DNA of 64,000 nucleotides from Dehalococcoidia bacterium (GCA_963665775.2 CAXXTF010000002.1:96001-160000), one strand, 5' to 3'. Shown: positions 638 to 14,378, counted from the stretch's first letter. Program-made: numbers and translations. The notes: generated by a model not told the origin, from the letters alone.

Positions 638-3600
638 ATGGCGCGAGTGGCCGGAGCCGAGCCCATCTATCGAGTCGCTGATCTCTTTCGGCAACGTTGC
701 CTCATCGAAAGGCGATCACTCTTATGGGGTGAATCAGCTGTGTGGACGCCGGACAATCTGTCCGCGCTGTGGGACGCTTTCGACAAGAGTCGTGACGAGA
801 GCGACAGGTCCTTCTTCGACAAGCTTCGAGACCAAATCAGTGAGCAACCACCCGACGTCCATCGTGTGGCCGCGGATATCTTGGCACTATATCACCTGTT
901 CCCGTCAAATATCGCCGCCGAAACGAAGCTCAACAACGTCAAGACAGTCATCAGCTGGAAACTCCAGGGAGATCTGCCAGATTTCCTGCTATTGGAGAAG
1001 GCCTATTCGAAGGGCATAGGAAGCGGAGGCACGGGGTACCTCACAGGAAGGCCATGGCACTTCGCCTTCCTAATCAAGTTCTCACAAGGAATCCTCTCGG
1101 GAGAAGCCGACCCACTCGACCCGACATCCTGCCAGAAACTCGCCGACTCCGTTGAGAGCCAGATTCGGAGTAGTCGGGCTGCGCGACACGTGATCCTGCA
1201 CCTGCTACACCCGGACAGGTTCGAGCGAATCGCTAGCGAGAGGCACAAGCGCCAATTGATTGAAGCCTTCCAGGACCGAGCGGCCGCGGCAGAAGATCTT
1301 GACGATGCGCTGCTCAGCATAAGGCGTGCTTTCGAGGATGAGTATGATCGAGCGGACTTCGATTTCTACGACAAGGACGTTATCGCCCACTGGAACGCCG
1401 ATTTCTATGGAACCGACGGGGAGTCAGATCCTACCAAGATTGCAGAGCTGCTGGAGAACAAATCGTTAGCGGACAGGGACGTAATTAGCGAAAAGGGCTG
1501 GCAGAAAGCAGTACGGCCCATTACCCGACCCTTCCTACAACGAATAGCAGACAAACTCGGAACCGGGGTGAAATTCTTCTCTGGGAGAGATGCAAAGCTA
1601 AAACGGGAATCCTATGACACGCTCGCCGTCGAATTGGATGGCGTCTCCGCGGTCGTCTATGTTGGATGCGCAGATAACGCTGACGGGAACCTTGAGCAAC
1701 AACTCAGTTGGGGACTGCACTCCTGGGGGGCAGCCGACTCCGCCGAGCAGCGCATACGCGCAGCGGAGAGCCTGAGCATACCAGGATTTACCCTGCGAGC
1801 TATTGACGGGATCAAGGCCAGTGGATTCGGCGGAACAACCGTTGTCCTATTCAGGTCGAGGTCGGCCGAAGAACTTCGAGGTTTGCCGGAAGATGAGCTT
1901 GTAGGCGAAATCGCTGACGACCTCAAAACCATCATTGCCAAAGCTTCTGCTCCGGTCGAGGAGCCCCGCGTCTGGATAGAGAAAACAATCGTACATGGGC
2001 GGCCGCATCGTCAATCCGGAGAGCACGCTCTCGGCAAGGTGCTCTGGTCCCCGCAGCACAGCAGAGGGGGCGGCGACATATATCACTTCATGCGCGACGT
2101 GAAGGAGGGCGACATCGTCCTGCACCTGACGGACAACGAGGCGTTTGCCGGCATGTCAATTGTCGGCAGCCCGGCTGAAGATTTCGCGGGCGTGGCAAAC
2201 TCGGAATGGGGCGAGGGCGATTCATACTTGGTGCGACTCCGGGACTTCGAGAGACTAGATCCACCACTGTCGCGAGAGGTCGTCTTTGAATCCCCTTATC
2301 GAGAGCAGCTCGTCGCGTTACTAGAAGAGGGAGAGAAGAATCTCTTCTATAATCGAGGGCCGAGCCTCAATCAGGGTGCACACCTGACACCCGCGCCCAC
2401 GGCACTGGTCGCTATTCTGAACGATGCGTACCGCCAGGTCGCCGGGCGGCCCCTCGTCGAGTTGACGCCCCCGAAACTCAACGCTCTGCTTGTCGGTACA
2501 GCGGCCTATCAGGAGAAGCACGCTCTGCTCGTTGAGGAACAACTCCAGTCCCAAGATCGAGCGACTTCATGGTGGCACATCCCAATCACAGGTGATCGAG
2601 AGCGAGTGCTGATCGAATCGGGTTACGTGTACTTGTACAGGGGCCAGCCCGGCCAGGAGTTGACGCACCGCTATCATGTGGTCGATCACAGCACCACGAG
2701 CGGCAACACAGGAATCGCCTGCCCCTGGCCCGAATTCGCGCAACCAGAGTTGCTGGACAGGACAAGCGCCGGCCCCGACAGCGACGAAGTATTCAAGACG
2801 TGGCTCTTGATCGACCGCGTCGAAGAGCTCGATCCCCCTATTGATTTGAGCTAGGTCGAGAAGGCGGACGGTGAACCCGCAGATCCGAGCGCCCTTGTTG
2901 GAGGATTTGGACTGTGGCGCACTAAGAAAAGCAGTCGCGCCCACACGTGGATCTTTCAAGCGAATCCGGCGATTTACGACATTCGCGGCTCCATCCAAGT
3001 GCTTCAAGAGGATACTTGGCTCGTGCGGCAACATGGCAACGAGATTCGGCCAGGAGATAGAGTGTACTTGTGGGAGGCCGGACCGAACGGCGGCATTATT
3101 GCGACTGCCGACGTTCTCAGCCAGCCCAGCACGATGTTGTTGCCTGACGAGTCTACGCCTTTCGTTAGAGAGCCGTCCAAGCTGGAAGGTCCACAAAATC
3201 GCGTTACGGTTCGTATTAACAATCTTGTAGACCCGATCCTAACCCGGGAAGAAGTGCTTAGGCAGCCAGAGCTCGCGAACCTCAGCATATTGCGACAACC
3301 GCAAGGGACAAATTTCAGCGTAGATCGAAGACAGTCTGAGGTGCTCGAACGTCTCCTTGCCGAGCGGGATGAGGCGCTGATCAATCCTGAGTACAGTCTG
3401 AACCAGTTGGCTCTTGAGACCGGCTTCGACGAAGCGACGATGGAGCGCTGGGTGCGCGCAATCGAAAGAAAAGGCCAAGCGATAATCTACGGACCGCTAG
3501 GCACTGGCAAAACCTATCTGGCGCAGCAGCTCAGCAGACACATTGTTGGTGGTGCTGACGGACTACAAGATATCGTGCAGTTCCACCCAGCGTATGTCTA

Positions 3601-4213
3601 TGAAGATTTCATACAGGGCATCCGACCTCAGGCCAGCGAAGGTGGCGGACTTGACTATCCGGTGATTTCCGGTCGCTTCGTCGAATTCTGTGCAAAGGCT
3701 CGGATGCGACAGGGACACTGCGTTCTAATCATCGACGAGATCAATAGGGCGAATCTGGCAAGGGTATTTGGCGAGCTGATGTACCTGCTTGAGTACCGCG
3801 GCCGCGAGATCCCGATGGCTGGTGGCGGCACCTTGAAAATCCCCGAGAACGTCCGAGTCATAGGCACCATGAACACCGCCGACCGCTCGATCGCTCTGGT
3901 GGATCATGCGCTTCGCCGAAGATTCGCGTTTTTGGCCCTCTATCCTGATTATGAGGTCCTGCGGAAGTACCACGCATCCACCGGCTACCCCACAGATCCG
4001 TTGGTGGGTGTCCTGCAGGCACTGAACCGACAGATAGGCGACCGGCATTACGAAGTCGGAGTCACCTTCTTCCTGTTGAAGAATCTGGCAGACCATATTG
4101 AGGACATTTGGCGAATGGAGATCGAGCCCTACCTGGAGGAGTATTTCTTTGACCAGCCCGAGAAGGTAGCTGAGTTTCGCTGGGATAGGGTTGGGGAGAG
4201 ACTTTCTCCGTGA
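638..4213 (+). pseudogene. mcrB: McrB-family AAA+ GTPase with extended multi-domain N-terminus (EVE/PUA-like readers), split by an in-frame TAG at 2852-2854
   Basis: ORFs 533-2854 and 2999-4213 share a frame with an open linker encoding the EVE start HTWIFQANP; Walker A GPLGTGKT, Walker B LIIDEINR, McrB signature MNTADRS; ATG at 638. Confidence 0.85.
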
Positions 4214-5424
4214 ATGCCCCTCCCACCCAAATTGTGGAGCTCACAGAGTACGCCACCAAGAGCTTCCCACGCGAGGACATCCCTGACAGCGTAGCCGAGG
4301 CGTTATGGCGGAACCATAGCGCTAAGGTCGCGGTAGAGTTCCCATCACCGAAGACCGCCTATAAGTGGGAACTCACCGCCCAGGGCTGGGTAGGCTACAT
4401 TCCCTTGTCTCCAGAACTGCGTTTGTGGCTTCGCCCAAAGGTGGAGCTGTCCAACCTGTTTCACATGCTTGAATATGCGTACCACCTCAAGAGCTTCATC
4501 TTCCTTGAGGGCCTTTTCGAGTGCCAATCACTCCAGGAATTCTACGAGCGCCTGGCGAATGTCCTGGCCAAACGAATCCTGAACCGCGGCCGCCAGGGAT
4601 TCTATCGAACCTACGTACCCAGAACAGAGCGCCTGCCCTACCTGCGCGGCCGACTCGAGATTCCATCACTGGTACGAGCACCTTGGGACGCAAACATGCA
4701 GTGCCACTATCATGAGCACACCGCTGATGTCGAGGAGAACCAGATCCTCGCCTGGACGCTCTTCACGATAGCCCGGAGCGGCATGTGCTCGGAGCGCGCC
4801 ATGCCGGCAATAAGCCGGGCGCACCGCGCCCTGCAGGGATTCGTAACGCTCGTCCCGCAGGGCCCAGAGGCATGTACAGGGCGGCTCTATCATCGGCTAA
4901 ACGATGACTACAGGCCGTTGCACGCCTTATGTCGGTTCTTCCTAGAGCATAGCGGGCCACATCACGAGACGGGCGATCGAACTATGGTGCCATTCTTAGT
5001 TGATATGGCACGCCTTTTCGAATTGTTTGTCGCAGAATGGCTGGCAGCACACTTGCCGGAGGGGCTGGAGTTGAAGCCTCAAGAAAGTGTAGCCATCGGT
5101 GATGGAGACACTCCTGGCTTTGTAATCGACCTAGTGCTATACGACACGGCCAGTGGCACCGCACGCTGCGTGATGGACACGAAGTATAAGACCCCGACGG
5201 CACCTTCGACTGAAGACATCGCTCAGATAGTTGCCTACGCTGAGGCTAGGGGCTGCCAAGATGTGATCCTGATCTACCCAACTGAACTGCCGAGGCCGCT
5301 TGATGCCACTGTCGGGAGTATTCGAATCCGAAGTCTGGCCTATTCTGTGGACACGGACATCGAGCAGTCAGGGCTCGACCTGATGCATAACCTACTCAAT
5401 GCCGGGCAGTCCGGCGGCTTCTAG
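4210..5424 (+). CDS. mcrC: McrC-family PD-(D/E)xK restriction endonuclease subunit
   Basis: GTGA overlap with mcrB; motifs DMARLFELFV, IDLVL, MDTKYK, DIAQIVAYA. Confidence 0.9.
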   Translation: MNAPPTQIVELTEYATKSFPREDIPDSVAEALWRNHSAKVAVEFPSPKTAYKWELTAQGWVGYIPLSPELRLWLRPKVELSNLFHMLEYAYHLKSFIFLEGLFECQSLQEFYERLANVLAKRILNRGRQGFYRTYVPRTERLPYLRGRLEIPSLVRAPWDANMQCHYHEHTADVEENQILAWTLFTIARSGMCSERAMPAISRAHRALQGFVTLVPQGPEACTGRLYHRLNDDYRPLHALCRFFLEHSGPHHETGDRTMVPFLVDMARLFELFVAEWLAAHLPEGLELKPQESVAIGDGDTPGFVIDLVLYDTASGTARCVMDTKYKTPTAPSTEDIAQIVAYAEARGCQDVILIYPTELPRPLDATVGSIRIRSLAYSVDTDIEQSGLDLMHNLLNAGQSGGF

Positions 5425-5639: not shown

Positions 5640-5951
5640 CCAGGTACATCAGGCTCCGGAATCGTCAACACTGATGCGTTGGGCTTCCAATGGGTTGAAT
5701 TGTCTTCGTCAGAGGATGAAGGGAAGTCATTTGCCGTGAGATTTCCGGAAGATACGACTTTGTCATTTCCAACAAGCGATGCGAGAGCAAGAATCAGAGG
5801 ATTCCGATTCAAAGTCAGGTACAACATAGCCACAGAGAAGATTGCAATATATGGTGAAGATTACGTTTCCTTGGTCATGCATGCGATTTTCGAAGACAGG
5901 AAATTCGCCATTTCTCCAGATGGAGCAATCCATGTATTCGGTTCTCCTTGA
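5640..5951 (+). pseudogene. C-terminal fragment of a hypothetical protein, truncated at the IS end
   Basis: Protein-like frame (PGTSGSGIVNTDALGFQW...HVFGSP) begins directly at the IS remnant boundary. Confidence 0.45.
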
Positions 5952-6194
5952 CAGATACCTTGGTTTCGAACTATCGACTTTCGTACTGGAAGGGACTCGA
6001 TGACCAACATAGCCCGAGAGAGTACCATTGAGGTTCCGGGGGTACCCGTAGGATTGCAATCCCTCGCAAAGGAGGACATCGGGATACTGTTAAACGCAAT
6101 ATCGACAATTGCTGACGCACAGGGAATACAATTCCTGCTCAATAAGATTCGTGTGACCGACTGTTTTGAAGACGGAATTTCCTAGTTTAAGGTC

Positions 6195-6223
6195 TTGACC
6201 TTCCGCCCTCCCTGTGCGATAAT
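6195..6223 (+). promoter_or_regulatory. Sigma70-type promoter overlapping the left TIR
   Basis: TTGACC-N17-GATAAT with TG extension. Confidence 0.6.
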
Positions 6224-6265
6224 CATAGTGTGGACAGTGATTACGTACTAAGAAGGACGGAAGGT

Positions 6266-7153
6266 ATGAACATTATAACAGTTTTCGAGCGGTTTCCAAC
6301 CCAAGTAGATTGCATCAAACACCTGGAAAAGGCTCGTTGGGGCGATCAAGCAACCTGCCCCTACTGCACCTCCACCAATACCAAGCCACTCCAGCATCGT
6401 CACCGCTGCTACACTTGTAAGACCTCTTTCAGCGTTACAGTCGGCACCATCTTCCACCATACCCATATGCCCCTTCAGAAGTGGTTCCTTGCAGTTACGC
6501 TCATTCTGAATGCTAAGAAGGGGTTATCAGCCCTGCAACTTTCCCGTGATCTCCAAGTGAACAAGAACACTGCTTGGAGAATTGCTATGCAAATCCGTAA
6601 GGCGATGACCCAATCGGAACAACGTGGACTGCTCACTGGCATCGTGGAGATGGACGAAACGTACATCGGCGGCAAGCCTCGCAAGGGTACTAAAGGCGAC
6701 GGGCCGGATGGCCAGCATCTCCGGGGGCGCGGCACCAGTAAGACCCCCGTGGTGGGGGCCGTGGAACGCGGCGGCAAGGTCACGGCAAAGGCGACCGACA
6801 AGACCAAACTCCGGGGATACCACCTTCGAGCCTTTGTCCGTGAGCGTGTCAACACGTCTAGTGCGGCTCTTGTCACGGATGAGTACAAAGGCTATCTGGG
6901 TATGGACAAGGTACTCCCACACGCCGTTATCAAGCATCAAGACTGGTACGTCGATGGCGATATCCACACGAACACCATCGAGGGGTTTTGGGCATTGCTC
7001 AAGCGGGGCATGTTCGGCCAGTACCATAGCGTGAGTCGAAGGCGTCTACAACGCTACGTAGATGAGTTCTGCTATCGCTACAATCTCCGACACATGGAAG
7101 CTCAGGCAGCATTCGACCAGACTATTAACCGAGGATTGGGGGGGACGGCATGA
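6266..7153 (+). CDS. IS1595-family transposase
   Basis: Zn ribbon CPYC...CYTC, HTH, VEMDETYIGG, LVTDEY, HTNTIEGFWALLKR, YVDEFCYRYN. Confidence 0.95.
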   Translation: MNIITVFERFPTQVDCIKHLEKARWGDQATCPYCTSTNTKPLQHRHRCYTCKTSFSVTVGTIFHHTHMPLQKWFLAVTLILNAKKGLSALQLSRDLQVNKNTAWRIAMQIRKAMTQSEQRGLLTGIVEMDETYIGGKPRKGTKGDGPDGQHLRGRGTSKTPVVGAVERGGKVTAKATDKTKLRGYHLRAFVRERVNTSSAALVTDEYKGYLGMDKVLPHAVIKHQDWYVDGDIHTNTIEGFWALLKRGMFGQYHSVSRRRLQRYVDEFCYRYNLRHMEAQAAFDQTINRGLGGTA

Positions 7154-8028
7154 GCACAGAGCCTTTGAAAGTTATTGCAGGAGCACCAGACCGCCCGTTG
7201 GTGATCGGTGATATTGAGATACCCTGCTACGTAGTGGAGGATGAGACACGGGTTTTGAGTCAACGTGGCGTTACGGCAGGCATAGGGCTTAACCCTGATG
7301 CAGGCTTTAGAATGCCGCAATTCATGGCCTCTAGGAGCATTGCCAAGTACGTTTCGGCGGATTCTATGCCGGCCTTGAAACATCCAGTCCGCTTCAAAAA
7401 TCCCGTTGGGGGAGGTGTTGCTTTAGGCTATCCAGCAACGCTCCTGAGTGACATTTGTGGTGCGGTTCTAGCATGTCGGCGGGCTGGTACTCTGTCACCC
7501 GTGCACACTCACATAGCGGAGCGATGTGAACTTTTATTACACGGCCTTGCCAACGTCGGCATCGTCGCCCTGGTGGACGAAGCTACAGGCTACCAGGACG
7601 TCCGGTCACAACGTGCCCTCGCAAAAATCCTAGAGGAGTTTATAGCCAAGGAACTCCAGCCGTGGACCAGGACCTTTCCCTACGAATTCTACACGGAGAT
7701 TGCCCGTCTGAAAGAGTGGCCAGAGATATACAGCATAAAGCGTCCGTCAGTGATTGGCCACTATACGAATGATATTGTTTACGCCCGCATCGCGCCCGGA
7801 CTCCTTGAAGAGTTGCAGAGCGTCAACCCAATGCTGCCAACTGGTAGGCGAAAGAACCGGCATCATCAATGGTTCACGCCAGACTTGGGGCATCCGAGGC
7901 TGAAAGAGCACCTAGCAGCCGTCACAGCCTTAATGCGGGCCGCCCCGAACTGGGCCGCTTTCCAGCGTAGCCTACAGCGTGCTTTTCACAAACTCAATGA
8001 CGACTTGCCTTTACCCATAGAGGATTAG
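7150..8028 (+). CDS. P63C-domain protein
   Basis: IPCYVVEDETRVLSQRG, VGIVALVDEATGYQD, WTRTFPYEFY, RHHQWFT; ATGA overlap with the transposase. Confidence 0.9.
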   Translation: MSTEPLKVIAGAPDRPLVIGDIEIPCYVVEDETRVLSQRGVTAGIGLNPDAGFRMPQFMASRSIAKYVSADSMPALKHPVRFKNPVGGGVALGYPATLLSDICGAVLACRRAGTLSPVHTHIAERCELLLHGLANVGIVALVDEATGYQDVRSQRALAKILEEFIAKELQPWTRTFPYEFYTEIARLKEWPEIYSIKRPSVIGHYTNDIVYARIAPGLLEELQSVNPMLPTGRRKNRHHQWFTPDLGHPRLKEHLAAVTALMRAAPNWAAFQRSLQRAFHKLNDDLPLPIED

Positions 8029-8030
8029 CT

Positions 8031-9253
8031 ATGGCTGCTAACTTCTCTCATCAGACCATCTGGACAGGTGACAACCTGGACATCCTCCGAGGGATGAACA
8101 GCGAGTGCGTGGACCTCATATACCTGGACCCGCCTTTTAACTCCAACAAGACCTATGAGGCCCCCATTGGCTCGGAAGCTGCCGGTGCTGCTTTCAAGGA
8201 CACGTGGACGCTGTCTGACGTGGATGAAGCATGGCATGGGGAGATAGCGGACAGGGAACCGGTGCTCTATGCCATCATAGATGCTGCCGGGCAGTCTCAC
8301 GGCAAAGGTATGAAGTCGTACCTGATTATGATGGCGGTTCGGCTACTGGAGATGCGGCGTGTCTTGAAGGACACGGGGAGCATCTACCTCCACTGCGACC
8401 CTACGGCCAGCCACTACCTGAAAATGCTGATGGACTCCATTTGGGAACCACGCAACTTTCTTAATGAGGTCATCTGGTACTATCGAGGGGCGGGAGTGCC
8501 CAAGAGTGCTCGTGCCCGACGGCATGACACCATCCTATGGTACGCAAGGCAAGCCGGTAGTCACTGCTTCAACGCGGATCCTATACGTCAACCGTATGCA
8601 GAGACTACCATTGAACGATTCAGTCACTATATAGGGAACATTAGAGGTGGCACGGATTTTGGCCAACAAGCATTGAATCCCATTGGGAAGCATCCAGACG
8701 ATGTCATAACCCATATTCAGCCAATCGCCCCATCAGCCAAGGCAAGGATAGGCTACCCAACTCAGAAGCCAGTAGAGTTGCTTGAAAGCATCTTCTTATC
8801 TTCAAGTAATCCTGGCGATCTTGTCCTAGACCCCTTCTGTGGCTGTGCTACCGCTTGCATTGCTGCGGAGAAGCTGGGTAGGAAGTGGGTCGGCATTGAC
8901 ATATCCCCAAAGCAGCAGACCTAGTTAAACTGCGACTGCATAACGAGATCGGGCTATTCTGGCAAGGGGCGCACCGGACGGATATACCGATGCGAACGGA
9001 CCTGGGAGTTCTCCTCAACTACCGGACACACAAACATACCCTGTTTGGAAGGCAGGAGGGGCTCTGTGCTGGCTGCCAAGTGATGTTCCCGTTCAGGAAT
9101 ATGACCGTTGATCATATAGTCCCGCAGTCAAAAGGCGGGACAGATCACCGAGACAATCTACAACTGCTGTGCAATGCCTGTAACTCGATGAAGGGTGCAG
9201 GGACACAGGAAATTTTCATAGCCAAGTTAACGTCCACGGGCATCAGAAGTTAG
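8031..9253 (+). CDS. N6-A/N4-C DNA methyltransferase fused to a C-terminal HNH endonuclease (1-nt frameshift near 8910)
   Basis: DLIYLDPPF, YPTQKP, DPFCGCAT; adding one base in ccccaaag gives ISPKAADLVKLRL...RTDLG continuous with CAGC...DHIVPQSKGG...NLQLLCNACN. Confidence 0.85.
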
Positions 9254-10379
9254 AGTATGTCAAGACCTTAAACTAGGAAATTCCGTTTGAAGATGACGTT
9301 AATCGATTGCTCAATGAGCGCTCAGGTCTTACAGGGTATGTGGCTGCCCGAAACAATGCGCACGCGATTGGCAAGACCCTTTGGATCCGCTCCCAGCAAG
9401 GAGACCTTAGCTTTGCAGTGATTATCGATGCGAAACAGATAGGCTCGTGGGGGCTCAAGAATCCGCGGTGCCTGACAACCGTACTCCACGAGCTGATTCA
9501 CGTACTCTACGAAGAGCGCCACTTTAAGAGGCTGGGAGAGGAAGAGTACACCGCCGATGCCGACACAAGGGAGCGATGGCTGGACGGCTGGGCCAGCTCG
9601 CTTCTTGATGAGTTCGACGTGGACCGCCTTGTCAACGCTCTAGTTGGCGGACTAGCTACAAAGGATGACGGGCAGCCTTGGTCTCTGCGAGAACTGGATG
9701 AGGATCAGGGGATAGATTGGGTTCAGGGGCTGCTTGATAGTCTTGCCCAGACGCCACGTTTGATAGAAGAACAGGTATGGCAGTTTCAGACTAGGCAAAT
9801 GGGGATCGACGACCTCGCCACGGTGGTGATTCCCGACATCAACGACCTTCTCAAGTTGCTGAGCCGTACCGCTTCGAGGTACGTGGGAACCGAGCTTTGG
9901 CCAGACATTGTAGAGCGAATCAAGGAGACGGACGCCTCTCAACGTTTCTTCAAGGAGCACCTCGATACCATCCTTGGTCAACTTGATGATGCTCAGTTGC
10001 CGTTTGAGGAGTCCGTTCAGATTGTTGCGCATGCAGTAGAAGGGATATTCCACAACAGCGGCCTCAGCTTTCAGACAGTTCCCGAAGGCGTTTACATCTC
10101 CGTTGACACGCCGTCGCGTTAGCTGGAAGTCCCTGGGGGTTGAAGCGCGGTCAAGGATGGTGAAGGCTTGTCCGATGCCCAGACTGTCCATCCTGGGGCC
10201 GGGACATTGGGCAGCCAGTGTAATAGCGACCATCGCAGGGAGGTATGGGACATGCATCGGGTGATGGCGCTGCTTCTGACCACCCTGACATGTCATGGCT
10301 GGCGGGTAGCAGACCCCAGGGAGCCTCACAGAGCCCCCAACCACATCTCGAAGACAGTACCACCTACTATCCACTTTGG

Positions 10380-10754: not shown

Positions 10755-12280
10755 TGTTGGCAACCAGCAAAATTGGGACACATTGAGACCCGAGAGATCA
10801 GGGGTCGGATAGAGGTCTCGTAAGCTCCCTGATGGCCCTATTGTGCTGTCTTCGCCGTTCGATTGTTTGGGCCTGCACCTCCTTTCTTCTTAGTAGGATC
10901 TCCTGCCGCCTTCCCTTGAGGACATCCGAGGGCGTCACGTTGCCGAGGGCCTTGTGATAGCGTCGGTAGTTGTAGTAGCTGACGAAGGCCACGATGGCCG
11001 CCTCCAAGTCTGAAGGCATCTCATACGGCAGTTGGTTCACATCACGCTTGAGGGTCTGGTGGTAGCGCTCCAGCTTGCCGTTGGTCTGAGGATGGAAGGG
11101 CGTTGCCAGGATGTGCTTGATGCCCACCATACCCAGGTAGTCTCTGAAGGCTCTGGATACATAGCCGGGGCCGTTGTCGCTCAGCAGCCTGGTCCGGTCT
11201 GTTATCGGGATCTGGTCCATGCCGGTCCTGTCCACGGCCTCTTGGACCACCTCTATGAAGGAGTCGGATGTCATATCCCTCTGAAGCCTGTGGCCCAGGC
11301 CTGTCCTGAGCTTGTCGAAGGGATGAATCGTGAGTAGTCGTCCATGACGGTGACCATGTAGTAGTAGCCCCAGCCCACCACCCTGAAGTAGGAGGCATCG
11401 GTGGCCCACATCTGGTGGAGACCGGTGGTCTTCCGATGGTACTCCTTACCCGCAGCCAGCTGCATCTCAGCCCTCTTCACCAGCCCCTCCCTGGGCAGGA
11501 TGCGGTAGACAGTAGACTCTGATACGGAGAAGCCCTGGTTGTCGGTGGTCCATGCGGCCAACTGCCGGCAACTCAACTCCGGCATCTCCCTGGCTGCCGA
11601 CAGAACGTAGTTGATCTCCTGGGAAGTCAGCTTGTTCCATGGGGGATTGCCACCTCCCACGTCGTCCTCAAGTCCTTGCTGCTCCTTCCGCCTCAGCCAC
11701 CGGTAGTAGGTGATCCTGGGGACTCCTAGCCCACCCAGGATCCTGCGTTTGGGGAGACCGGAGGAAGCCACCTTGTCCAGCACCTCCGCCTTCTCTGCGC
11801 CACTCATCCGTTGATACTGTCGGCGCCCTGAGGCATTGGTATGGACGTTTTTTTGAGACGATAGACCTCAAGGGACAGATCGGCGACCAACTGCTTTAGC
11901 TCTCCGTTCTCCCGCTTGAGCTGATGGACCTCCTCCCTGGTGGCATCTCGCACGCTGTCGGGGGTGAGCCTCTCCTTGCCCGCTTCCATGAACTCCTTGG
12001 TCCACGAGTAGTAAGAGTGACGCTTGATGCCCTCCCGCCTGCACGATACGAATCTTCTCTTCCGGGGTGTACTTGCGCCTAGTAGCAGCCTTAACCGTTC
12101 CGATGAATGACCTGGCCGCCTCTGTGCGTTCATCAGCGGCCGCTGTTTTACCTGTTTCTGTCTGGGACATCTTTGGCTCCTCTATCTGAAGTGCTCTACC
12201 TCATCACGGAGCTGACCCCACCTCAAATCTCTCGGGTTTTTCTACCCCCTCATCTGTCCCATTATCGCTGACGGTCTACA
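10755..12280 (-). mobile_element. IS3/IS481-like DDE element (orfA + orfB), defective
   Basis: Imperfect TGT-initiated IRs (TGTTGGCAACCAGCAAAATTGGGACA / TGTAGACCGTCAGCGATAATGGGACA); orfA 12170-11804 frameshifted; orfB 11807-10798 with WATD, SDNGPGY, GKLER, frameshifted by a 23-nt insert. Confidence 0.9.
11299..11321. repeat. 23-nt REP-like micro-insertion GCCTGTCCTGAGCTTGTCGAAGG
   Basis: Its removal restores orfB (DDYSRFI-LGHRLQRDM). Confidence 0.8.
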
Positions 12281-13492: not shown

Positions 13493-14378
13493 TCACAGGG
13501 CAACCTCCCACCGAAAAGTTTGTAGTACAGTCCCCGTTGGCCCACCATCGTGCATACTAGATAGAACGGAACCATGTAGGGTCACCTTTACGGCCGCCCC
13601 TCCCGGTATCAAGGTGTCATCTGGCACAGGTGCAGTGTATCTGAGCAGGGCGTCACCGGGCACGACGACGATCTCCTTGATAAAGGACTGGATGAAGGCC
13701 CTGCGCTCGGTCAGTTCGCTCTCCTTCAGGAAGTCCTTCATGTCCTTGGCGTAGGCCGCGATGGTGTTCACGTCGTCGAGGACCTTCCGGCGCTGGGCCA
13801 GGACCGCCCTCGCCTGCTCAGCGAAATACTCCAGACGCTCCTGCCGCTCTCGGTGCTCCCTGATGCGGTCTGAGGCGTCGGTCATAACGGCGTCGGACGT
13901 CTCTATGAAGTGCCAGATGCGGCCCAGCTTCCGCTTCACTTCCTCAAGCTCATCCTCGATGGTCTCCAGCCTCTTGCGCTGCTCTCGGGTCACGCCGTCC
14001 ATCTCCTCGGCCACCACCTTGACCAGATCTCGGATGTTGCCCTCAGTGAGGATGTTGGAGCGAATCCTGGCGACCACCAGCTCCTCGAAGCGGCGGGCGT
14101 TGAGCGTGGGAGTCTTGCAGGCGTCCCTGCCGAGCTTGATGGTCGACTGGCAGACGTAGTAGGAGTACTTGCCGCTCTGGGCGAACCGGCCGATGAGCGG
14201 CGTGTTGCACGTCTTGCACTTGGCGAGGCCGCTGAGCAGGTAGGAGCTTCCGACTCTTCGGGGGTGGCTGAACTTGGGTGCGCGGGAGCTCAGATGCTTC
14301 CCGACACGCTGCAACTGCGCCCTGGTGATGATGGCGGGAAACGCCTTCTCCACCCGCACAGGGTCGGCGTTGTCCTTG
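13493..14378 (-). pseudogene. Large serine recombinase, C-terminal half, truncated by IS3
   Basis: YLLSGLAKCKTC, YYVCQS, coiled coil, RAFIQSFIKEIVV; homologous to 20611-21681. Confidence 0.9.

Follow-up and report, generated by a model that had tools for sequence, protein, structure and literature searches.

The window analysed here, a stretch of 64,000 nucleotides from a Dehalococcoidia bacterium (GCA_963665775.2, CAXXTF010000002.1:96001-160000; positions are counted from its first letter), contains at 6173-9285 an insertion sequence (IS) of the IS1595 family, 3113 bp long and bearing passenger genes. The element is a sound, well-formed and recently mobile transporter IS (tIS), and its three genes, which encode a transposase, a P63C-domain protein and a DNA methyltransferase (MTase) joined to an HNH nuclease, form a trio that is real but modular. 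The overall account, which we hold to be very probable, is that of a recently mobile tIS with a constant transposase-P63C core and a variable cargo slot, occupied here by the MTase-HNH fusion, in whose gene the frame break at a run of C residues most likely reflects an assembly error or a very recent deletion.

Anatomy and mobility of the element

An inverted-repeat search returned two arms of 28 nt (6172-6199 and 9259-9286) that were 100% complementary, corresponding to a 27-bp terminal inverted repeat (TIR; left, 6173-6199, plus strand; right, 9259-9285, minus strand) plus one flanking base. The 8-bp target site duplication (TSD) tttgaaga was read from the sequence directly outside both ends, with identical copies at 6165-6172 and 9286-9293. 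Chance could not plausibly produce a perfect 27-bp inverted repeat framed by exact 8-bp direct copies, and the repeat search and the sequence agreed with the first-pass annotation, made from the window's sequence alone, which had described the TIRs as perfect and the TSD as intact. When the element and one TSD copy were removed by computation, the flanking segments 6000-6172 and 9286-10122 joined into an interrupted host open reading frame (ORF) of 333 aa (6000-10122, plus strand), neither half of which matched any family in a Pfam search.

The transposase gene (6266-7153, plus strand, 295 aa from the ATG at 6266, within an ORF open from a GTG at 6230) ends in an ATGA overlap (7150-7153) with the start of the P63C gene (7150-8028, plus strand, 292 aa), whose stop codon at 8026-8028 is separated by 2 nt from the MTase ATG at 8031; the stop of the HNH frame lies 5 nt before the right TIR, so that the tight coupling of the three genes noted earlier was borne out at each joint. 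The transposase matched DDE_Tnp_IS1595 (PF12762, 1.9e-32, 112.8 bits, cut-off 27), NCBIfam NF033547 (198.1 bits, cut-off 75) and Zn_ribbon_IS1595 (PF12760, 3.6e-07, 30.5 bits, cut-off 25.4), the four Cys of the zinc ribbon being invariant in 25 homologues, and its start at MNI... agreed with the homologue consensus. A DDE domain, a zinc ribbon, TIRs with an 8-bp TSD and signs of transposition (a second copy, an empty-site joint and the restored host ORF) were therefore all found, as in members of the IS1595 family.

The genome (2 contigs, 2.35 Mb) contains a second, diverged copy from C2:647814 onward (copy 2), with identities to the window copy of 96.6% for the transposase, 86% for P63C, ~68-74% for the MTase and 59% for the HNH part. 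At the DNA level the two copies form a mosaic, with 99-100% identity over the first 450 bp, 73-91% in P63C and an unalignable MTase middle (14-33%); the P63C region of copy 2 was 97-99% identical to that of another Dehalococcoidia record (L037). The MTase-HNH frame of copy 2 is open (471-492 aa), with ATT replacing the MTase ATG, and no match to its right TIR was found anywhere in the genome with ≤6 substitutions allowed.

Logan contigs from four public runs were aligned to window positions 5900-9600; runs labelled sponge metagenome contained small portions of the stretch. One contig from run X6 carried an empty-site joint, 6164 to 9286, with 8 letters common to both sides, although its shorter side comprised only 22 letters, below the caution mark of 30, and the contigs aligned to the window are short assembly pieces; the joint is a good hint of an empty target site, short of proof. 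Contigs of depth ~19 from runs X6 and X7 joined 6194, in the inner left TIR, to 9263, in the inner right TIR, skipping 3068 bp, and this joint could come either from a miniature element that has lost its interior or from misassembly at the inverted repeat.

The TIRs and TSD, the second copy and the occurrence of the same TIR on related elements (see below) uphold the earlier proposal of a self-mobile IS1595 element with passenger genes. An inert relic, in which the frameshift would be a sign of decay, is highly unlikely: cargo decay is common in relatives, and copy 2 lacks both a right end and the ATG of the MTase, but the perfect TIRs, the exact TSD, the intact transposase and P63C ORFs, the near-identity of the first 450 bp in the two copies and the empty-site allele in a public run all point the other way.

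The transposase-P63C core across genomes

An alignment of P63C was scanned against one genome per species, yielding 563 confirmed relatives, and the loci counts given here refer to the best 80 of these 563. An IS1595-family transposase gene lay directly upstream of P63C on the same strand in 37/80 loci, including nearly all of those with a P63C identity of at least 53%. A further 16/80 loci had instead a divergent ORF of ~290 aa with weak matches to IS1-type DDE transposases, and in the three loci checked the IS1-like gene and P63C were enclosed by their own perfect or near-perfect TIRs. Such elements, which make up another type of transposon accompanied by P63C, were located at L077 6852-10319, L108 6083-9195 and L107 6914-9131, with TIRs GGTAGTGGGTCAGTTTG...

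The TIR of the window element (≤6 changes in 26 nt) was present at both ends of the element in 13/80 loci, with a perfect 8-bp TSD in four of them and a TSD matching at 7 of 8 positions in another two. According to their records, these TIR-sharing loci belong to Dehalococcoidia, Alphaproteobacteria, Terriglobia/Acidobacteriota, Latescibacterota, Nitrospira, Longimicrobiales and others, that is, to at least six phyla. Element lengths ranged from 2064 bp to ~3.8 kb, the shortest (L061) consisting of transposase and P63C alone, with a different TIR type and the TSD CAAAAATA. The transposase gene overlaps P63C in L037 and L056 as well. A sister element of 2373 bp with perfect TSDs was found in two copies in one alphaproteobacterial genome (L040/L041 8001-8924), its P63C frame being interrupted by stop codons at positions 55 and 60 of the alignment.

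A whole-element DNA search of 60 relatives returned only short MTase or transposase segments, in 13/60 genomes, and no copy of the element as such. In a sample of the phylum, P63C was detected in 7/400 other genomes; 0/6 neighbourhoods fetched had an IS1595 transposase, and one had an MTase ~1 kb off. The transposase-P63C association is thus absent from the small phylum sample and evident in the all-species scan.

The slot behind P63C contained a same-strand MTase-HNH gene in 8/37 transposase-P63C loci, representing seven distinct elements (L049 and L050 come from a single genome and are copies of each other), so that the trio does recur on related elements when their cargo is tabulated across genomes. 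Other occupants were a reverse-oriented MTase-HNH homologue (L057), an R-M pair of an Eco47II-type endonuclease and a distinct N6_N4 MTase (L046), DUF6731 with an uncharacterised gene (L052), a PemK/MazF-like gene (L066) and a Clp-protease-like gene (L071). A Pfam search gave no match for 14/20 cargo ORFs, and PADLOC returned nothing for seven uncharacterised cargo proteins. The slot of one same-TIR sister element (L048 9096-9941, minus strand) matched an IS1595 transposase at 31% identity on the reverse strand, which may be a nested or back-to-back second transposase.

As in a tIS, the third slot varies among elements with a common TIR and core, and L061 has nothing in it; from this variation we infer that the cargo is dispensable for transposition. 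Because the slot behind P63C varies, P63C is, on the sequence comparison, linked to the transposase and not to the methylase. The suggestion that P63C acts as regulator or accessory of a restriction-modification (R-M) module is consequently not supported: P63C is present whatever the cargo and also without any (L061), and MTase-HNH fusions occur on IS1595 elements that lack P63C. The constant core would consist of a DDE transposase and a translationally coupled P63C protein, and the variable cargo slot would lie between P63C and the right end.

The P63C protein and its place in the element

P63C was assigned by PF10546 (2.4e-27, 95.8 bits, cut-off 26.1; residues 160-251). An AlphaFold model, built from a 50-row alignment that excluded L040 with its two stop codons, had a mean predicted local distance difference test score of 80.5 and a predicted template modelling score of 0.52; its N-terminal domain is beta-rich and the rest of the chain, towards the C-terminus, helical. 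Neither a Foldseek search of the model against the PDB (no match at E 0.001 or better), nor a search of the sequence against the PDB (nothing below E 0.3), nor PADLOC (no family at E 0.001 or better) gave a relative; PADLOC presumably contains a model for BstA, a protein considered below. A wider structural search with residues ~10-145 returned the N-terminal domain of DdrC (Z 7.0, root-mean-square deviation 4.2, 98 aligned), the N-terminal domain of granulovirus Orf22 (Z 5.2), Dachshund (Z 5.0), Swi6 (Z 4.1) and Mbp1 (Z 3.2), every match falling below Z 8, in the range where likeness may be a mere common arrangement. That the N-terminal domain binds DNA is a reasonable inference from these model comparisons, and P63C would then be a probable two-domain DNA-binding protein, the habitual companion of IS1 and IS1595 transposase lineages. 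Prediction of a transposase-P63C complex scored 0.00 in both runs (two alignments), which says nothing for or against binding.

Several observations weigh against the account given above, besides these low Z scores and the short X6 joint. No transposase adjoins P63C in the remaining 27/80 loci, and full-length P63C homologues at 32-46% identity occur in temperate phages, satellites and small plasmids. The pairwise identities of transposase and P63C were only moderately correlated (Spearman 0.38, 276 pairs), as calculated for 24 elements with both genes intact, taken from the 37 loci, the window and copy 2, with broken and duplicate loci excluded. Discordant pairs were found in both directions, L052 and L055 having transposases 92% identical and P63C proteins 52% identical, and L047 and L042 having 38% and 69%, respectively. 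In-frame stops, frameshifts or an internal deletion break the fusion in 5/7 distinct P63C-type elements of other genomes (L037, L039, L043, L051 and L054), so the cargo is often not maintained. Finally, methylation, cleavage, defence, addiction and a role of P63C in transposition are all putative. Taken together, the sequences indicate that the transposase-P63C pairing is kept and that its partners are exchanged.

The homologues outside chromosomal elements comprised 64 phage records (Stx, P22-like Salmonella, Gordonia and Burkholderia phages, and Streptococcus satellites) and 30 plasmid records, one of them a 5.8-kb plasmid, and no IS transposase adjoined P63C in the phage and plasmid matches inspected. 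Protein p63 of Myxococcus phage Mx8 was among them, and we take it, from its name, to be the namesake of the P63C family. Given these homologues and the loci without an adjacent transposase, P63C might itself be cargo. It would in that case be the commonest passenger and not a partner of the transposase, it would act at the level of the host, for instance in phage exclusion or abortive infection, and its layout would be like that of BstA. This possibility is a doubtful one, albeit with several points behind it: besides the loci and records just mentioned, P63C and transposase are reshuffled relative to each other, IS1595 elements without P63C do transpose (G402, described below), the remaining cargo of these elements consists of defence- or addiction-type genes, and the model is two-domain like BstA, with weak APSES- and Dachshund-like matches. 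On the other hand, P63C always comes first after the transposase, with overlapping start and stop, it is retained whether further cargo is absent (L061) or present, and three different groups of transposases have it as a neighbour. BstA itself, a protein of ~300 aa found on prophages and plasmids, has a KilA-N-like DNA-binding domain at its N-terminus and a distinct C-terminal domain (Owen et al. 2021, PMC8585504). The likeness of the P63C protein is limited to similar size and two-domain layout; its APSES/KilA-N-type structural matches are weak (Z 3.2-5.2), PADLOC gave no match, and the term P63C has 0 occurrences in the paper on BstA.

We retain P63C as part of the core. The literature searched, where the term 'P63C' is swamped by unrelated uses, held no description of P63C with IS transposases, IS1 or IS1595, and the protein can be studied directly.

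A more far-reaching proposal, which we put forward only tentatively, is that IS1 and IS1595 transposons with P63C are cross-phylum miniature shuttles for defence and addiction genes, each with two invariable core genes and, towards the right end, a slot reserved for cargo, that P63C is key to the success of the carrier, and that MTase-HNH is an uncharacterised class of one-protein R-M enzymes. The slot would then exchange beta-class MTase-HNH proteins of differing specificity, R-M pairs, toxins and other genes among co-resident bacteria, including sponge-associated ones, and P63C would act through recognition of ends or target, through regulation, or as a defence gene.

The MTase-HNH fusion

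The MTase part (8031-8924, plus strand), of the beta class of N4/N6 DNA methyltransferases, carries DPPF followed by DPFCGCAT and, as assembled, ends at a TAG at 8922-8924. The linker and HNH nuclease domain follow in the -1 frame (8909-9253, plus strand, stop at 9251-9253), with the arrangement CxxC ... DH ... N ... CxxC-N, in which the CxxC, DH and N motifs denote the zinc and catalytic sites of HNH nucleases. The former part matched N6_N4_Mtase (PF01555, 2.2e-41, 142.7 bits, cut-off 26.7) and the latter HNH (PF01844, 2.1e-13, 50.6 bits, cut-off 21.4) and HNH_5 (PF14279, 51.2 bits); against the HNH models of IscB and Cas9 the HNH part had its best scores, all below cut-off. By sequence, the nearest MTases of solved structure in the PDB were M.RsrI and M.MboIIA. 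SPPY/F is typical of N4-cytosine enzymes, and from the DPPF motif the target base here is probably N6-adenine. An alignment of eight fusions showed conserved DPPF, DPFCGC and HNH core, and a hypervariable middle of very different lengths.

The copy 2 protein had at least 8000 relatives, and among the 120 relatives listed, 119 contained PF01555 together with an HNH family, at 66-83% identity. The window copy is in two frames as assembled; the fusion is intact as a single ORF in copy 2, in L055 (405 aa), in L049/L050 and in a contig described below. Judging from these sequences, MTase-HNH is a large natural single-chain family. The L055 protein matched 183/401 genomes of the phylum at E 1e-20 or better, mostly through its MTase part; three genomes of this sample are unpublished, and none of the particular claims made here depends on them. 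Nine places in five genomes were inspected around strong full-length fusion matches. One genome (G402) contained four copies, 99.96-100% identical, of a 2479-bp element with 25-bp TIRs, carrying only an IS1595 transposase (29% identical to that of the window) and an intact MTase-HNH gene of 459 aa (L147 5005-7483), with an exact 8-bp TSD at both copies whose junctions were read (2 of 4). Another (G306) carried a 4010-bp element twice, its fusion gene running on the opposite strand, and G370 was arranged likewise; a transposase lay 4 kb from the fusion in G354, and none was found within 6 kb in G386. P63C stood beside the fusion in 0/9 of the places inspected. Since it is found on the elements of G402, G306 and G370 without P63C, the fusion is a recurrent passenger of several IS1595 lineages.

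The earlier reading of a one-polypeptide MTase-HNH R-M cassette is accordingly supported for the single chain (copy 2, L055, L049/L050, the large family and the C5 contig) and not for P63C as a part of that module. The fusion would most likely be a one-protein R-M or addiction module, with specificity residing in the hypervariable middle. It would be unlikely, by comparison, for it to be an orphan methylase and no restriction enzyme, its HNH domain nicking DNA or serving the spread or regulation of the element, for example through methylation of ends or promoter that times transposition, as Dam methylation does for IS10. In its favour, IS1595 transposases 29-37% identical to that of the window are found linked to the fusion again and again, whichever way it is oriented and whether P63C is there or not, no separate specificity or control gene is present, and the IscB and Cas9 models to which the HNH part scores best, below cut-off, are nickase-type. 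However, 29/37 transposase-P63C elements and most IS1595 elements lack the fusion, and transposition can therefore do without it; in L046 a classical R-M pair of two genes occupies this slot; the variable middle between MTase motifs would fit the pattern of R-M specificity diversification; and the fusion also occurs without a nearby transposase (G386).

The literature searched contained no description of MTase-HNH fusions of this architecture. This very common beta-class fusion, which likewise lends itself to direct study, is a candidate for an R-M enzyme made of one protein, in which the recognition region could be exchanged.

The frame break between MTase and HNH

The frameshift reported between the MTase and HNH parts was located at a C4A3 run (8905-8911, plus strand): the MTase frame ends ...GIDISPKQQT before its stop, and the HNH frame reads KAADLVKLRL... 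from 8909. A 235-nt contig of run X7 covering 8876-9109 differed from the window solely by one C inserted behind 8904. This C5 allele restores a single MTase-HNH ORF; its contig had a depth of 29, neighbouring exact pieces having 22-28, and the same insertion was seen at low depth in X11 and X1. Public contigs thus show the C5 allele at 8905-8912, the site where a check of the reads had been suggested; whether a C4 piece coexists in those runs is not visible from contigs, a further point to be set against our account. Runs X6 and X7 also contained a second junction allele with 16 differences and inserted bases behind 8905 (A) and 8940, and its net +2 would shift the frame again.

All relatives with this junction (10/10) read GIDxSxKA... 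in one frame, and none (0/10) had the two-frame layout. The C4 break most likely arose in assembly or through a very recent 1-nt deletion, either of which we consider likelier than programmed control. It would be very improbable that the C4 allele is real and regulatory, the zero frame yielding only MTase and -1 frameshifting a smaller amount of fusion protein, so as to keep the methylase in excess. Ribosomal frameshifting is common in insertion sequences, and C CCA AAG (8906-8912) has, when read in the MTase frame, the form X XXY YYZ of a -1 slippery heptamer; a slip there by one base back enters the HNH frame, gives ...ISPKAADLV..., the same protein as the C5 allele, and precedes the zero-frame stop by four codons. 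Nevertheless, a C5A3 run that loses one base yields a heptamer of this kind by construction, and no downstream structure stood out when 8913-8992 was folded (z -0.79, 42/200 shuffles as stable). Together with the one-frame relatives and with the fact that the only otherwise exact contig among those listed has C5, this argues against the idea that the frameshift limits nuclease output. In either case, error or deletion, -1 slippage on C CCA AAG could still give some fusion protein. L037 was considered as a second instance of the same frameshift and rejected, its break lying in different, degenerate sequence. For annotation, the case calls for caution, a seemingly regulatory frameshift being here most likely a homopolymer miscount.

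Promoter and leader of the transposase gene

A sigma-70-like promoter (6195-6223, plus strand) was read as TTGACC (6195-6200), 17 nt and GATAAT (6218-6223) with an upstream TG, matching at 10/12 positions. The promoter scan found three sites overall, where shuffles led one to expect 2.9, and by itself lends the promoter no support, whereas the -35 hexamer lies within the conserved inner TIR end in 10/12 aligned relatives. The promoter earlier said to be built into the left TIR is thus upheld as to its hexamers and the conservation of the -35, and not by a scan above chance.

The inverted-repeat search also revealed a leader hairpin (6198-6265, plus strand) in which 6198-6209 pairs with the ribosome-binding region of the transposase gene, 6254-6265. 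The 96-nt leader folded at -33.1 kcal/mol (z -4.57, 0/200 shuffles as stable), and the long-range helix was kept in the consensus of 12 relatives, with changes on both sides preserving pairing in 7/15 pairs. Transcription would begin at the promoter whose -35 lies in the left end. Transcripts entering from outside would carry the 5' arm, which would pair with the transposase ribosome-binding site and block translation, and only such read-through transcripts would be silenced because the 5' arm lies upstream of the likely start from the TIR promoter. The predicted structure and the covariation together suggest such a block. Fold-back inhibition is known in IS10 and IS50, where the ribosome-binding site of the transposase gene is paired with sequence from inside the end, both arms being present only in externally started transcripts. 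The element resembles them in that sequence just inside its left end also pairs with the transposase ribosome-binding region; it differs in that the hairpin is a predicted one (z -4.57), accompanied by the compensatory changes in 7/15 pairs among 12 relatives.

Genomic context of the two copies

A gene with EVE and AAA_5 domains (McrB-like; 2999-4213, plus strand; EVE 5.2e-07, AAA_5 5.5e-19) and an McrC-like gene (4210-5424, plus strand; McrC model 5e-25, 88 bits, below its 338-bit cut-off) lie 0.75 kb upstream of the insertion. The pair resembles a modification-dependent restriction system standing beside an incoming methylase gene, and the tIS would have inserted recently into a host gene beside an McrBC-like system. 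Copy 2 lies 0.74 kb past a second McrC-like gene (C2:645860-647077; L008 47-1264), 26.6% identical to the first, and 1.5 kb ahead of a CRISPR-like array with at least nine repeats of ~28 nt at a 61-nt spacing (C2:652711-653257; L008 6898-7444). Both copies are in defence-type neighbourhoods, given the adjoining McrC-like genes and CRISPR-like array. McrC genes as a preferred target neighbourhood were considered and rejected, as no McrC-like match flanked any of the 80 related loci and two copies out of two are too few. Downstream of the window element are an integrase-core (rve) fragment (10798-11409, minus strand) and a recombinase zinc-ribbon ORF (13493-14359, minus strand), and the region therefore resembles a graveyard of mobile elements.

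Comparison with known systems

Type IIC/IIG/IIL enzymes such as MmeI and BpuSI also combine MTase and nuclease in one chain, well-known characterised examples having an N-terminal PD-(D/E)xK nuclease and a gamma-class MTase. The fusion resembles the Type IIC enzymes in its one chain and in its one variable recognition region, presumably serving both activities, and differs from Type IIC/IIG/IIL in that a beta-class MTase is followed by a C-terminal HNH domain.

Siguier, Gagnevin and Chandler are said to have described, in 2009, tIS groups of the IS1595 family (ISNha5, ISNwi1+ and ISPna2+). The window element is like a tIS of this family in its ISXO2/IS1595-type DDE transposase with an N-terminal zinc ribbon, its short TIRs, its 8-bp TSD and the passengers inside its ends. 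Its ends, CGGAATT, agree with what we take to be the end consensus of the ISNha5 group (CGGnnTT), a group presumably of large size and with passengers. A review mentions ISNha5 in passing as an IS1595 member with a 'transcription regulator' passenger (PMC11891212). Compared with such tISs, the present elements have a constant transposase-P63C core and a swappable third slot, shared across records that by title represent at least six phyla.

In transposon-like R-M units, inverted repeats and 8-bp direct repeats likewise enclose the R-M genes, the empty site has been seen in a related genome, and linkage of R-M genes with transposase homologues is reported too (Furuta, Abe and Kobayashi 2010, PMC2853133). 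Those units are mostly of two genes and without a transposase of their own adjacent inside the repeats, whereas here one fused gene lies within a complete IS with its transposase. Cargo-carrying IS1595 elements are already known, and this element adds to them: R-M-type genes can travel as cargo of a complete 3-kb IS whose ends and core recur in records titled as belonging to six or more phyla, which provides one concrete route for the spread of defence and addiction genes within a community.

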